A program made the translations under genes and the position numbers. Source: a virus (Duplodnaviria; Heunggongvirae; Uroviricota; Caudoviricetes). From it: DNA of 37,472 nucleotides. Positions 698 to 37,472 of the stretch are shown here, one piece after another. The stretch lies in the IMG/VR virus record IMGVR_UViG_2561511241_000010, one strand, 5' to 3'. Each line of letters begins with the position of its first letter. The stretch's first letter is position 1. The notes under the pieces are model-generated. The model was not told the origin of the DNA. It saw only the letters and a list, made by a program, of their open reading frames with translations, and did not search any database.

Positions 698-1060
698 GGG
701 GCTGATTCTGGATTCGACGGGATTTGCGAAACCCAAGGTGCATGCCGAGGGGCGGTTGGCCTCGTAAAAAGCCGCAAAAAATAGTCGCAAACGACGAAAA
801 CTACGCTTTAGCAGCTTAATAACCTGCTTAGAGCCCTCTCTCCCTAGCCTCCGCTCTTAGGACGGGGATCAAGAGAGGTCAAACCCAAAAGAGATCGCGT
901 GGAAGCCCTGCCTGGGGTTGAAGCGTTAAAACTTAATCAGGCTAGTTTGTTAGTGGCGTGTCCGTCCGCAGCTGGCAAGCGAATGTAAAGACTGACTAAG
1001 CATGTAGTACCGAGGATGTAGGAATTTCGGACGCGGGTTCAACTCCCGCCAGCTCCACCA
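698..1060 (+). ncRNA. ssrA: tmRNA (transfer-messenger RNA)
   Basis: Starts GGGGCTGATTCTGGATTCGACGGG and ends with tRNA-like GGTTCAACTCCCGCCAGCTCCACCA; internal tag frame 787..819 reads ANDENYALAA then TAA; 363 nt. Confidence 0.95.
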
Positions 1061-32948: not shown

Positions 32949-33045
32949 TCGTTTAGTCCCGCATAAATAATACATAACGTACTATACACACTTACAAGAA
33001 TAATACAAAATGGAAGTTGCTCACTAAATACGGAATGTAATAATC
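32949..33045. promoter_or_regulatory. OR-like divergent promoter/operator region between cro and cI
   Basis: AT-rich 97 bp with motifs AATACATAACGTA (32969..32981) and AATACAAAATGGA (33002..33014), both recurring inverted near 33813..33850. Confidence 0.55.
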
Positions 33046-33714
33046 ATGGCTATGAAACAGAGATGGCAGGACCTGGCCAAAACCAGGATGAAAGAAGTCG
33101 GCATGACTCAAGAACAGCTGGCAGAAGCGCTCGGCATAACGCAGGGCGGGCTAGGCCATTGGTTAAATGCCAGACGTGAACCGAACCTAGAGGTTATAGC
33201 GAAGATTTTTAACATATTGAAAATGCCCGGCTTCGTAGTAAACGCTGACGGCACGGTCAGCGACTCAAGAGCCGATCACAATGTAAGTTTTAATAGCATT
33301 AACGAATCCAAAGGAAGTTACCCTGTTATAAGCTGGGTTAGCGCTGGAGACTGGATGGAAGCAGTAGAACCTTATCACCGTAGAGCGATAGATCGCTGGT
33401 ATGACACCACCGTTGAATGTTCAGAGGATTCGTTCTGGTTAGACGTCAGAGGCGATTCCATGACATCACCAGCAGGGCTGAGCATACCGGAAGGGATGGT
33501 GATACTTGTCGATCCCCAAGTGGAAGCAATCAACGGAAAATTGGTTGTAGCGAAACTTGACGGTGACAATGAAGCTACATTCAAAAAGCTTGTTATCGAT
33601 GCCGGTCAAAGATTTCTAAAACCCCTCAACCCCCAATACCCAATAATCCCAATCAATGGCAACTGCCGTATTATAGGGGTTGTGGTCGACGCAAAAATCA
33701 CCAACCTTCCGTAA
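33046..33714 (+). CDS. cI: CI-like repressor (HTH plus S24 LexA-like peptidase domain)
   Basis: N-terminal helix-turn-helix (MTQEQLAEALGITQGGLGHW); C-terminal GDSM serine motif and downstream lysine, as in LexA/CI autocleavage domains. Confidence 0.9.
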   Translation: MAMKQRWQDLAKTRMKEVGMTQEQLAEALGITQGGLGHWLNARREPNLEVIAKIFNILKMPGFVVNADGTVSDSRADHNVSFNSINESKGSYPVISWVSAGDWMEAVEPYHRRAIDRWYDTTVECSEDSFWLDVRGDSMTSPAGLSIPEGMVILVDPQVEAINGKLVVAKLDGDNEATFKKLVIDAGQRFLKPLNPQYPIIPINGNCRIIGVVVDAKITNLP

Positions 33715-33718
33715 ATTG

Positions 33719-33799: not shown

Positions 33800-33850
33800 T
33801 ACACTCAAATACTCCATTTTGTATTGATCTTATTTAATACGTTATGTATT
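33800..33850. promoter_or_regulatory. OL-like operator/promoter region
   Basis: Contains inverted copies of the two OR motifs: TCCATTTTGTATT (33813..33825) and AATACGTTATGTATT (33836..33850). Confidence 0.45.
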
Positions 33851-33884
33851 GTTTATGCATTGGCGGATTAATGGAGTGCAAAAG

Positions 33885-34380: not shown

Positions 34381-34548
34381 AAATTAATTAGTCATTTTAA
34401 TTACAGGAATAATCCTGGGGATTCCTGCAATCAAATTAAGGGTAACCATGATTAATCGACAAGCGTTTAAAACAGCTCAGTTATTTGTCTCATTCGGTTA
34501 TTGGTCTATAGCCATGCTTTATTTAAAAAAGGCTTACGGTAAATAAAA

Positions 34549-34914
34549 ATGAATAATTTAACTAATACCTATCGACGCAGAATTTTAAAGGCTGCGTTAT
34601 TACGCCACCAGCGTAAAACGGGCAGTAACTGCCTTGTTATTAAGCTCAATAAAGGCGGTATTAACACGGTCGAGTTAACAGAGATTCTTCTCGATGGATT
34701 ATTACGAAAATTCGAAAGGCTCGCGATCAGTGAGTACGGGAATGTCGAAGGCGTAAAAGCTATCAAGGGAATTTACAGCAGCGCTGTTGATGTTAATGGC
34801 AGCGGTGAATTCCTCACAGATAGCGGAAAGGAATTAATCGACGAACTCATTTCAGAGCTGGTGGAGTTCGTAAAAAAGCAGAAACCAGTTAATTCGGAGA
34901 TCGGCAATGGCTAA
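34549..34914 (+). CDS. Hypothetical protein with arginine-rich N-terminus
   Basis: 121 aa; N-terminus YRRRILKAALLRHQRKTG is strongly basic. Confidence 0.4.
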   Translation: MNNLTNTYRRRILKAALLRHQRKTGSNCLVIKLNKGGINTVELTEILLDGLLRKFERLAISEYGNVEGVKAIKGIYSSAVDVNGSGEFLTDSGKELIDELISELVEFVKKQKPVNSEIGNG

Positions 34915-35161
34915 CCAACAAACAATTCCCTATCAGGGTGTTCTGATCCCCCGGCCCGTGCTGAACGTGGATCTGCATGTCCTCCCGGATTTTACCGGGC
35001 GGGTAGTCCTGCACATCGAGAACGGGAGGGTGATATGCGACCGCCGGCTGTTCGACGACGAGCACATTTGCTCACTAGCCACGTTTATCGAAATGGCGCG
35101 CGAAATGGAGCTGAGATTTGAGGAGGTAGCTGGTGGCACTGACAGCGATACGAATTCCTGA
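34907..35161 (+). CDS. Hypothetical protein
   Basis: 84-aa ORF overlap-coupled on both sides. Confidence 0.4.
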   Translation: MANQQTIPYQGVLIPRPVLNVDLHVLPDFTGRVVLHIENGRVICDRRLFDDEHICSLATFIEMAREMELRFEEVAGGTDSDTNS

Positions 35162-35354
35162 GTGGGTTCACCTCAAAGCAGCACACGTTTTAAGCCAGTT
35201 CAGAGCAAGGCGCATTCATCCATGCCGTATGCACGGCTCCGGTAATTTGAGCCTCAAGGTTAATCACCGCTGGCGGCTGCTATCACGAGATGGCGGCAAG
35301 AACTGGGAAGTAATGAGTCACGAACGATACAGCAAAGTTAAGGACCGGAAATGA
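35133..35354 (+). CDS. Hypothetical basic protein
   Basis: 73-aa ORF, His/Arg-rich, overlap-coupled. Confidence 0.35.
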   Translation: MALTAIRIPEWVHLKAAHVLSQFRARRIHPCRMHGSGNLSLKVNHRWRLLSRDGGKNWEVMSHERYSKVKDRK

Positions 35355-35758
35355 ACGATAAACGCATCAGCACCACCTCAATTGACAGCGCCTTTTCCAA
35401 AGAGCTACAGCCTGTTTACGTCGTATCAAGGCACGGCTACTCGCGCCGTTTCCTCAGCAGGAGCGCGGCGATCAGCAACCTTGCTCACTACATGGTAACC
35501 AAAACTTTTCACCGTGCCGGTTTGAACACCAACGAACCAGACGAGCCTTTTTTCAGCAATGGTGTGCTCGTCAATCGCATGGGCCAGCACACACAGCAAT
35601 ATCTCTTTGCACATAACCGATGCATGCGGCGCATTCGCCGAATTCTGGAACGCAAGCGCGAAGCACTTAAGTGGCTCGGTAAGTGGGACGCGATGCATGA
35701 CCGATTCGTTAAAGAGGTTGATGCACTGCAGGCCATCAAACCAGCAGGGGTGAAATGA
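35351..35758 (+). CDS. Hypothetical protein
   Basis: 135-aa ORF overlap-coupled to neighbours. Confidence 0.45.
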   Translation: MNDKRISTTSIDSAFSKELQPVYVVSRHGYSRRFLSRSAAISNLAHYMVTKTFHRAGLNTNEPDEPFFSNGVLVNRMGQHTQQYLFAHNRCMRRIRRILERKREALKWLGKWDAMHDRFVKEVDALQAIKPAGVK

Positions 35759-35850
35759 TGAAGCCCTTCATTTTCAGCATCATTGTTTCCATGCTGCTGG
35801 CGGCCACCGTTATCGGCGCGCTGATTGAATATAAATTTTTGGTGAAGTAG
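35755..35850 (+). CDS. Possible 31-aa single-pass membrane peptide
   Basis: ATG overlapping the upstream stop (ATGA); MMKPFIFSIIVSMLLAATVIGALIEYKFLVK is one hydrophobic helix; not in the ORF table. Confidence 0.3.
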   Translation: MMKPFIFSIIVSMLLAATVIGALIEYKFLVK

Positions 35851-35861
35851 CGAGGCACTCC

Positions 35862-36146
35862 ATGAAAAAGCCAGTTTTAGAAGTTATTAAGCGTTGGAGA
35901 CGTTTAGCAACGGAGGCCAAGCAGCTGAAGCTCGCCACCATCCCTATCGACCCGGAAAATATGCTGATGGTGCTGGGGGAACTTCCAACCAGTGAAGACT
36001 ATCAGGCTGCAATCGATTTTTTACGCAAGAGAGCGGCCAGCGAACTTGATGGCGGTTTTAGAGCGCACCACAACGCACTTATCTATGCGGCAAATGAACT
36101 GGAAAATGCCCAGGCATTTGGGCGGGAGGTCGGTCATGAGTCTTGA
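35862..36146 (+). CDS. Hypothetical protein
   Basis: 94-aa ORF with plausible spacing; overlaps the xis start by 11 nt. Confidence 0.45.
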   Translation: MKKPVLEVIKRWRRLATEAKQLKLATIPIDPENMLMVLGELPTSEDYQAAIDFLRKRAASELDGGFRAHHNALIYAANELENAQAFGREVGHES

Positions 36147-36345
36147 TTGCGTACCTCTTTCAACCTACTGCCGGGACGCCGGAGAAACGGTTGAAGCCGT
36201 TAACAAACGGATACAAAGGGGGTTATGGAAAGAGGGTGTCCATGTATTAAAAGTCGATGGCGTTAAAGAACGCTGGATAGACTTAACGGAGGTTTCAAAG
36301 TGGGCAAGAAAGAACAAGGATCATTATCTCTCCCAAGAGGAGTGA
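36136..36345 (+). CDS. xis: Excisionase
   Basis: Start at internal Met 36136 (GGGAGG ribosome-binding site); 69 aa; resembles lambda Xis in its winged-helix segment; overlaps the int start. Confidence 0.6.
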   Translation: MSLDCVPLSTYCRDAGETVEAVNKRIQRGLWKEGVHVLKVDGVKERWIDLTEVSKWARKNKDHYLSQEE

Positions 36346-37472
36346 CCATTCGCCAGCATAAAACTGGCGATACCCTGGTGATCACATTCACCTACAAGGG
36401 GGTTCTCTGCCGGGAGCCCCTTTCCAGAATGGAAGCAAACGCGCGCGGCGTGAAGTATGCCGAGCGCCTGCTGGGGGAGATACAGAACCAGATCGCCGGC
36501 GGCACATTCGATTATGCGAAATACTTCCCCACCTCCAAAAAACTGGAGCTGTTCGGGGTAGTGAAGAAAACCAAAAATATTAAGTCCTACCTGGACGAGT
36601 ATCTGAAAATCTGCCAGAACCGCAACCTTTCGCCGTCCACTATTGGCGGTTATGAAAAGTGCCTGTCTGCGCTATCTGCGCTGCACAAAATGCATGTCTC
36701 GGAACTGACCCCTGCGGTCCTCAAAAACTGGATCGCCAGCAGAAAAACAAAGCTGAAAACGATCAGGAATAACCTCTCGTTTCTGCGCAGCGCCATAGAT
36801 GAAGCGGTGACAGACGGCCTGCTGACTATCAACCCGGTAACCCTTGTCAGCGCGAGTCGGTACCACGTGATCGACAGCAGCCCGAATAGTGACGATTACG
36901 AAGTTGATCCGTTCACACCAGCGGAAATCAGCGCTATTTACCAGAGCTGCAGATACCAAGAGTGGGAAAACCTGTTCCGTTTCGCATTCAATACTGGTTT
37001 ACGCAGCTCTGAGCTGTGTGCGTTGCGCTGGCCTGATCTCGACAATATCGCTAAAACAGCTCACGTTCAGGCGGCAAGTGTTGTTGGCGTTCTGAAAGGT
37101 ACCAAAACAAAAGCCGGTACCCGTAAAGTAGAATTAAACAGCGAGGCGCTGGCCGCGCTGCAGACGCAGAAACAATTCACTTTCATGAAAAGCGAGTTTA
37201 TTTTCAGCGATCCCAAAACGGGTGAGCCCTGGGCGAACGCCGACGCGATACGAAAAAAAGCATGGGTGCCAACCCTCAAAAAAGCTGGCGTTCGATACCG
37301 TAACCCGTACCAGACCCGCCACACATTCGCCACCAGACACATTAGCCAGGGCGTAAACCTTTTCTGGCTTGCCGGGCAGATGGGGCATAAAGGGCCGGAA
37401 ATGCTGTTCCGCAATTACGGTAAATACCTGGCTGAATACGACGGGAAAACCGCCATTTCTGCAGCTCTGTAG
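36300..37472 (+). CDS. int: Tyrosine integrase
   Basis: 390 aa; C-terminal catalytic region with RHTFATRHISQG and LAGQMGH...Y motifs; stop codon is the last three bases of the window. Confidence 0.9.
   Translation: MGKKEQGSLSLPRGVTIRQHKTGDTLVITFTYKGVLCREPLSRMEANARGVKYAERLLGEIQNQIAGGTFDYAKYFPTSKKLELFGVVKKTKNIKSYLDEYLKICQNRNLSPSTIGGYEKCLSALSALHKMHVSELTPAVLKNWIASRKTKLKTIRNNLSFLRSAIDEAVTDGLLTINPVTLVSASRYHVIDSSPNSDDYEVDPFTPAEISAIYQSCRYQEWENLFRFAFNTGLRSSELCALRWPDLDNIAKTAHVQAASVVGVLKGTKTKAGTRKVELNSEALAALQTQKQFTFMKSEFIFSDPKTGEPWANADAIRKKAWVPTLKKAGVRYRNPYQTRHTFATRHISQGVNLFWLAGQMGHKGPEMLFRNYGKYLAEYDGKTAISAAL

Follow-up and report, generated by a model that had tools for sequence, protein, structure and literature searches.

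What a run of four small, overlapping open reading frames (ORFs) encodes, and whether these ORFs act as one unit, is the question raised by the right end of an Escherichia coli prophage recorded as IMGVR_UViG_2561511241_000010 (Caudoviricetes). The record is 37,472 nucleotides (nt) long and is referred to as a whole as the window. The ORFs lie between a cI-like repressor gene and the integrase gene, and the initial annotation described them as an overlap-coupled block of small early genes that ends in a hydrophobic, possibly membrane-active peptide reminiscent of lambda Kil. The stretch is an ordinary kind of phage region made up of the accessory genes of a repressor-controlled early-left operon. 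The four ORFs are conserved and are shuffled separately among the prophages of the Enterobacteriaceae, and they are four accessory genes and not one functional unit. The last of them encodes a peptide of 31 amino acids (aa) which, judged from its sequence conservation, belongs to a genuine family of single-pass membrane micro-proteins, and the second encodes a 73-aa protein with a predicted RelE/ParE fold that resembles a solo early protein more than the toxin of a classic toxin-antitoxin pair. The four ORFs are as follows.

34907..35161, + strand: 84-aa ORF with an ATG start, a member of PHROG 340, a family of unknown function (PHROG E value 9e-29).
35133..35354, + strand: 73-aa ORF with a GTG start, Pfam PF24732 ParE_like (Pfam match and fold model).
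35351..35758, + strand: 135-aa basic protein in translational coupling with the 73-aa ORF, a member of PHROG 1886, a family of unknown function (PHROG match).
35755..35850, + strand: 31-aa single-pass membrane micro-protein with an ATG start, MMKPFIFSIIVSMLLAATVIGALIEYKFLVK (conservation, synonymous variation and hydropathy).

The sequence and the ORF table place the four ORFs exactly at the coordinates first given for them, with overlaps of 29, 4 and 4 nt. The 29 nt are shared by the 84-aa and 73-aa ORFs, and the 73-aa and 135-aa ORFs as well as the 135-aa and 31-aa ORFs each overlap by the four letters ATGA. A GAGGAGG Shine-Dalgarno sequence lies seven bases before the GTG of the 73-aa ORF, and the 84-aa ORF in turn overlaps the preceding 121-aa ORF by 8 nt. 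The three larger ORFs each fall into a PHROG family of unknown function with E values from 1e-28 to 1e-53, no ORF of the block has a match in NCBIfam, and the PADLOC defence models yielded none for the four ORFs, the only two matches being insignificant and both on the 94-aa gene that follows the block. A search of Pfam-A with the four ORFs at E values up to 0.1 returned the PF24732 match of the 73-aa ORF and one sub-threshold BNR match only, and no Kil. The comparison with lambda Kil is therefore not borne out at the level of family membership, as PF24732 is the only Pfam family that any of the four matches above threshold. What is shared with lambda Kil is the genomic place, among the small accessory genes of a repressor-controlled leftward operon between cI and xis-int, but none of the four ORFs shows sequence similarity to it.

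Gene-order maps were drawn for 50 loci anchored on the peptide and for 79 loci anchored on the 73-aa protein. The latter sample was obtained with the closer ParE alignment as query, the wide ParE alignment being too diverse, and the 73-aa proteins within it share at least 96% identity. The genes for the 121-aa, 73-aa and 135-aa proteins form a triad in 78 of the 79 loci, the remaining locus being cut at its edge; some of this constancy is attributable to shared ancestry, because the 79 loci are close relatives. More distant ParE-like relatives in loci L060 and L065 are also flanked by homologues of the 121-aa protein, at 32-33% identity. Only 12 of the 79 loci have an insert between the 121-aa and 73-aa genes, in the form of the 84-aa gene or of a divergent, 70-aa member of PHROG 340, and the 84-aa gene is lacking in phage Fraca and in MS 115-1. 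The slot after the 135-aa gene is variable and may hold a 64-aa two-helix protein together with an SPFH protein, a 192-aa gene, an ORF6N anti-repressor-like gene, a 74-aa gene of PHROG 1001, or the peptide. Of the proposal that the four ORFs constitute one block, the overlaps and the shared operon thus stand, whereas the gene-order maps of both samples resolve the block into separate cassettes.

The existence of the peptide gene rests on two samples of loci, one from a scan of viral contigs in which the motif was demanded and the other gathered independently through the downstream 94-aa gene. An ORF of 31 codons could on its own be due to chance, but one that is kept intact points to a real gene. 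All 50 motif-found loci carry an intact ORF of 28-34 codons, and 56 of the 61 loci with the 94-aa gene carry the peptide ORF 8-16 nt upstream of it, the other five having a different gene in that position. The exact string ALIEYKF occurs in 55 of these 56 ORFs. When 33 distinct nucleotide versions are compared, nine kinds of synonymous variant and a single non-synonymous one are seen in the eight codons of the motif, an excess with a binomial P of about 1e-5 given that 22% of the sites are synonymous. An alanine four residues before the invariant glycine is fixed in 32 of the 33 versions and creates an AxxxG small-xxx-small face beside the GALIEYKF motif. The ratio of non-synonymous to synonymous polymorphism (pN/pS) of the whole peptide is 0.44, indicative of purifying selection. 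The best 19-residue Kyte-Doolittle mean is 2.6 (2.45-2.80 in four variants), which fits a transmembrane helix; the peptide has fewer than 50 residues and one predicted membrane-spanning hydrophobic helix. The early description of the 31-codon ORF as encoding one hydrophobic helix is therefore upheld, hydropathy and conservation together supporting a membrane protein.

The peptide gene behaves as a portable cassette. It is preceded by at least four different genes, encoding the 135-aa, a 192-aa or a 74-aa protein or the 73-aa protein itself, and in these four contexts the Shine-Dalgarno sequence is kept and the ATGA overlap is usual. Downstream of it at least six gene families are found, including xis itself, the 94-aa gene being the commonest. 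The exact peptide sequence is present on 858 public contigs, according to an exact-sequence cluster look-up, where it is always labelled 'hypothetical'; the hosts are Enterobacter, Citrobacter, Klebsiella, E. coli and Pseudocitrobacter. Related sequences were recovered by nucleotide BLAST from 17 of 5,426 complete E. coli genomes, and the motif from six of 185,579 species-representative genomes, all of them Enterobacteriaceae. The ORF is left unannotated by RefSeq/PGAP and is annotated in Escherichia phage LMessi. Pfam, searched with the peptide variants at E values up to 10, gave only sub-threshold membrane-helix matches, no PHROG family reaches threshold and a literature search for the motif string found nothing. 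The peptide, with its 28-34 residues and AxxxGALIEYKF motif, thus stands for a family not yet catalogued, within the known general class of small phage membrane proteins. Its derivation as a remnant of the 64-aa two-helix/SPFH genes or of the 192-aa gene that occupy the same slot was considered and rejected, as there is no visible similarity and the peptide occurs at full length in many contexts. Two deviating copies were noted, both just upstream of position 2501 of their loci: in L138 the tyrosine of the EYKF motif is replaced by serine, and in L098 the N-terminal half of the helix is lost (MKIQHQDYGAVAAVVFGALIEYKFLIGF). These two could serve as natural loss-of-function comparisons.

The constraint on the peptide sits on one motif while the rest of the helix drifts, and it is for this reason that a binding role is favoured. 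The peptide would pack helix against helix with another membrane protein or with itself, through the AxxxG face and the juxtamembrane EYKF, and would thereby act as a modulator akin to MgtS, AcrZ, SgrT or the phage exclusion proteins and not as an unspecific disruptor of the membrane. MgtS, AcrZ, SgrT, KdpF and the exclusion protein gp15 of phage HK97 are single-pass micro-proteins that bind larger membrane proteins. The peptide resembles them in its length of about 30 residues, its one helix, its short juxtamembrane motif and its small-xxx-small face. The likeness is one of functional class without sequence relationship, and expression of the peptide is predicted for the lytic phase only.

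A membrane-damaging or growth-arresting host killer, made early and with an effect like that of Kil, TisB or Hok, appears an unlikely identity for the peptide. Its size, its single hydrophobic helix and its position in an early operon would all suit such a killer, and the small-xxx-small motif could drive self-association into pores; the type I toxins Hok, TisB, Ldr and Ibs are indeed similar in size and hydrophobicity. However, the peptide has no Pfam similarity to these four toxins or to Kil. Kil is a soluble 47-aa inhibitor of FtsZ, whereas the peptide is a predicted transmembrane helix. Type I toxins are expressed from their own, tightly controlled transcript, whereas the peptide gene is part of a translationally coupled polycistronic operon and has no predicted promoter of its own. 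An Rfam scan of the window returned only the transfer-messenger RNA (tmRNA) gene and no known antisense RNA family for the peptide. Furthermore, constraint is strongest on the juxtamembrane GALIEYKF and the N-terminal half of the helix is free to vary, which is more in keeping with a defined contact than with bulk disruption of the membrane.

The 73-aa protein is the sole product of the block with a Pfam assignment, which the initial annotation had overlooked. It matches PF24732 ("ParE_like") at 72.8 bits (E value 2.3e-20), above the gathering score of 24.4, and newer RefSeq entries name its homologues "ParE family toxin-like protein". AlphaFold2 gives a confident model, with a predicted local distance difference test score (pLDDT) of 89.5, which shows the helix packed on an antiparallel sheet that defines the RelE/ParE fold. 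Its best matches among solved structures are nearly all members of the RelE/ParE superfamily, namely RelE, HigB, PrpT, YoeB, YafQ and ParE. At the level of sequence no meaningful match to a solved structure was found in the PDB, and a 63-member profile of the family searched against the PDB gave a single chance match, to TFIIB. The family is small, as an exhaustive profile search recovered just 111 cluster representatives among 1.84 billion. It is already catalogued in Pfam and is uncharacterised, and the literature on ParE-like prophage proteins, when searched, yielded nothing specific.

Among 63 diverse members of the family A16 and R48 do not vary at all, and H63 and Y66 hardly vary. An arginine on the sheet together with a C-terminal histidine and tyrosine is the pattern of the RNase branch of the superfamily, represented by RelE, YoeB and HigB, and the ParE toxins are known not to have residues of this kind. 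The conserved R48, H63 and Y66 of the 73-aa protein therefore recall the RNase branch, as far as can be judged from sequence. Compared with the other members of the superfamily, the 73-aa protein shares the predicted fold but is shorter and has one N-terminal helix instead of a hairpin. It also belongs to a family without a family-wide partner gene that is located in phage early operons, including that of a T7-like phage.

Distant PF24732 members are found in the early regions of unrelated phages and share no neighbour. In a T7-like phage (L227 3001..3210 and L228 1880..2089) the PF24732 gene is 28 nt upstream of the gene for a single-subunit RNA polymerase. The region before the RNA polymerase gene of such phages is the early host-takeover region, and phages of this type do not form lysogens. 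In a P2-like early region another distant member has an exonuclease gene on one side and a Dam methylase gene on the other. No adjacent gene for a cognate antitoxin is conserved among the PF24732 members compared, and the simplest reading of the 73-aa protein is that of a solo early protein, not of a toxin in a classic toxin-antitoxin system. The closest working analogy and precedent for a solo early protein with a RelE-type fold is RegB of phage T4. This early endoribonuclease, for which no antitoxin is known, has a RelE/YoeB-like fold and reprogrammes the use of mRNA (PMC3014915). By this analogy the 73-aa protein would be a solo early host-takeover factor that most likely interferes with mRNA on the ribosome in the manner of RelE, HigB or RegB, poisoning of gyrase as by ParE being less likely.

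The evidence on the toxin-antitoxin status of the 73-aa gene is mixed and leans against it. The gene could form a type II toxin-antitoxin or abortive-infection module with a neighbour, the candidate partners being the 135-aa gene, in the toxin-first order of HigBA, or the upstream 84-aa or 121-aa gene. Such a module would accord with the RelE/ParE fold, with the 4-nt ATGA overlap with the 135-aa gene and with the triad kept in 78 of the 79 close loci. In addition a homologue of the 135-aa gene is still adjacent in Rouxiella badensis (L064 3497..4222, 63% identity), where it precedes the ParE-like gene across an 85-nt gap and the order is thus swapped. Nevertheless a module of this kind is judged improbable. 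The 84-aa gene is missing from 67 of the 79 loci, and in eight peptide-bearing loci the 73-aa gene is present but a 135-aa gene is not. The distant family members have wholly different neighbours, also in the strictly lytic type of T7-like phage. The predicted model of the 135-aa protein shows no recognisable DNA-binding antitoxin fold and no known fold, and a PDB sequence search with this protein gave nothing meaningful. No PADLOC model matches and no separate promoter is predicted, and since the 79 loci are so close (at least 96% identity in the 73-aa protein) their gene order may be mere shared ancestry. Finally, the 73-aa gene is dispensable, because in four peptide-anchored loci it is replaced by a 219-aa HNH-AP2 homing-endonuclease-like gene (L017 2933..3592, with the same layout in L020, L024 and L027). 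The HNH-AP2 gene of L017 still begins with the eight codons (MALTAIRI) that open the ParE-like gene, which suggests insertion or replacement at exactly that spot. The 74-aa gene that replaces the 135-aa gene 5' of the peptide was also considered as kin of the 135-aa protein, and this was rejected as BLASTP produced no alignment.

That the 31-codon ORF is untranslated and merely marks a conserved DNA or RNA element, either a recombination linker or the translation-initiation region of the next gene, is very improbable: nucleotide BLAST in divergent prophages does recover only the 3' two-thirds of the ORF, which sits at a mosaic junction, but the frame and the 28-34-codon length are kept in all 50 motif-found loci, the ORF is present in 56 of the 61 independent ones, the motif varies at the synonymous sites of this very frame (P about 1e-5), the Shine-Dalgarno sequence and ATG persist in four unrelated upstream contexts, and an RNA-element reading was rejected as the predicted RNA fold is unremarkable (z = -1.35) and Rfam finds only the tmRNA elsewhere in the window.

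The four ORFs are embedded in a longer packed run that extends from 34549 to the integrase gene, with overlapping or near-abutting stop and start codons throughout, and that is preceded by the repressor. The features of the prophage that bear on this setting are the following.

33046..33714, + strand: cI-like repressor with S24 peptidase and helix-turn-helix (HTH) domains (Pfam).
33813..33858, + strand: left operator (OL)/pL-like operator-promoter region, the presumed head of the early-left operon (inverted element copies; promoter activity presumed).
34549..34914, + strand: 121-aa gene, PHROG 1737, a family of unknown function (PHROG E value 1e-53).
35862..36146, + strand: 94-aa gene, PHROG 36586, a family of unknown function (PHROG E value 9e-63).
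36137..36345, + strand: excisionase (PHROG 2917, E value 1e-40, over residues 47-115 of ORF 35992..36345).
36300..37472, + strand: tyrosine integrase, at the prophage end (annotation of the identical ETEC1749 locus as site-specific integrase and of LMessi as integrase).
698..1060, + strand: full-length tmRNA gene, ssrA (Rfam, 295.8 bits).

The prophage is HK97-like and is inserted at ssrA. The window comprises the whole prophage: the tmRNA gene near its left end is followed, on the - strand, by genes for tail, head, lysis and replication, and the right end contains a cro-like gene, the cI-like S24/HTH repressor gene, the four-ORF block and xis-int. By nucleotide BLAST a segment of 201 nt (35700-35900) matches E. 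coli ETEC1749 with 100% identity, and in that strain ypjA adjoins the integrase end of the element. The nearest isolated phage is Escherichia phage LMessi, and related modules are found in Fraca (Hendrixvirinae) and in Klebsiella prophages. The 94-aa gene begins 11 nt past the stop codon of the peptide and is overlapped by xis, which is itself overlapped by int; for the start of the excisionase, position 36137, the RefSeq annotation of L006 was used.

The block is on the same + strand as the repressor gene and 3' of it. Two elements between cI and cro recur in inverted orientation on the other side of cI: one of 24 nt (32961-32984) has a copy at 33835-33858 that is 92% complementary, and one of 19 nt (32996-33014) has a copy at 33813-33831 that is 89% complementary. 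The two elements in the right operator (OR) region are also direct repeats of each other, spaced 33 nt apart. The OL-like region follows directly upon the cI stop codon and a terminator-like hairpin at 33718. Inverted operator copies on both sides of cI are the OR/OL layout that would be expected if a pL-type promoter headed the + strand operon. No promoter-like or terminator-like sites are predicted within 34907-35850. The suggestion that the block belongs to the early-left region of a lambdoid phage has therefore held, with a cI-like repressor upstream, inverted operator copies and a run that ends in xis and int. The early-left operon is supported by this arrangement. Its genes would be transcribed as one polycistronic mRNA and translated by coupling, and expression would presumably begin only once a cell is infected or the prophage induced.

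The analysis shows that the genes are real and behave as cassettes, and it shows the fold and the operon setting; it is rather likely that the segment is a part of an early-left operon with four separate accessory genes whose biochemical activities would be those proposed above. Several observations weigh against this interpretation. The prediction of promoters is weak, and a scan for the sigma-70 consensus gave no site at the OL region. The membrane-spanning part of the peptide, the variable N-terminal half of the helix, has a pN/pS ratio of only 0.62, and the model in which the peptide has a binding partner is one of analogy. Moreover all 79 close loci have the 135-aa gene beside the 73-aa gene, and L064 keeps the two adjacent despite the swapped order, a pattern that also fits a pair of toxin and partner.

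A bolder combination of two proposals is doubtful and is offered tentatively. Firstly, the peptide may serve the phage as a dedicated modulator of one particular machine in the inner membrane of the host, the candidate targets being a DNA-entry channel, for superinfection exclusion during lytic growth, or FtsH, with consequences for the stability of Xis and CII. Secondly, PF24732 may be a broad family of antitoxin-less RelE-fold proteins with which lambdoid, P2-like and T7-like phages alike shut off their host, in analogy to T4 RegB and as its wider counterpart. Were the first proposal true, the peptide would represent a new functional family of phage micro-proteins that is skipped by current annotation pipelines, and a partner, if found, would add a phage example to the micro-protein regulators of membrane proteins.

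The small accessory genes of phage early operons are a common site of host-takeover, exclusion and anti-defence functions, and proteins of fewer than 50 residues are routinely missed. The peptide is a case in point: hundreds of public contigs carry its exact sequence, yet it is unannotated in RefSeq. The 73-aa gene suggests that phages of very different types use RelE/ParE-fold proteins as stand-alone early factors, which matters for the annotation of "toxin" domains in prophages, since not every such domain marks a toxin-antitoxin system. As the isolated E. coli phage LMessi has the same peptide and the same block, these questions are experimentally tractable.

Of the remaining products, the 84-aa protein has PHROG 340 relatives in 326 homologous clusters, nearly all labelled 'hypothetical' with a few stray labels. 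A Pfam scan of 18 members of the family at E values up to 10 gave no match, and a PDB sequence search with the 84-aa protein gave nothing meaningful. A single UniRef name pointed to DUF905, and this identity was rejected as hhalign against YkfF of E. coli K-12 gave a probability of 0.15% and the Pfam scans were empty. In Fraca (L003 2969..3987) and L005 (3221..4239), the 64-aa two-helix membrane protein that can follow the 135-aa gene overlaps the gene for an SPFH-domain lipoprotein-like protein, and the two resemble NfeD/SPFH-style pairs. At the opposite end of the prophage an smpB-like sequence is found to the left of the ssrA tmRNA gene. A second unannotated micro-ORF of 32 aa, MINRQAFKTAQLFVSFGYWSIAMLYLKKAYGK, is located at 34448..34546 on the + strand, within an apparent 168-nt 'gap' 5' of the 121-aa gene. 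Relatives with as little as 84% nucleotide identity keep it intact and at an unchanged length, with several amino acids exchanged.

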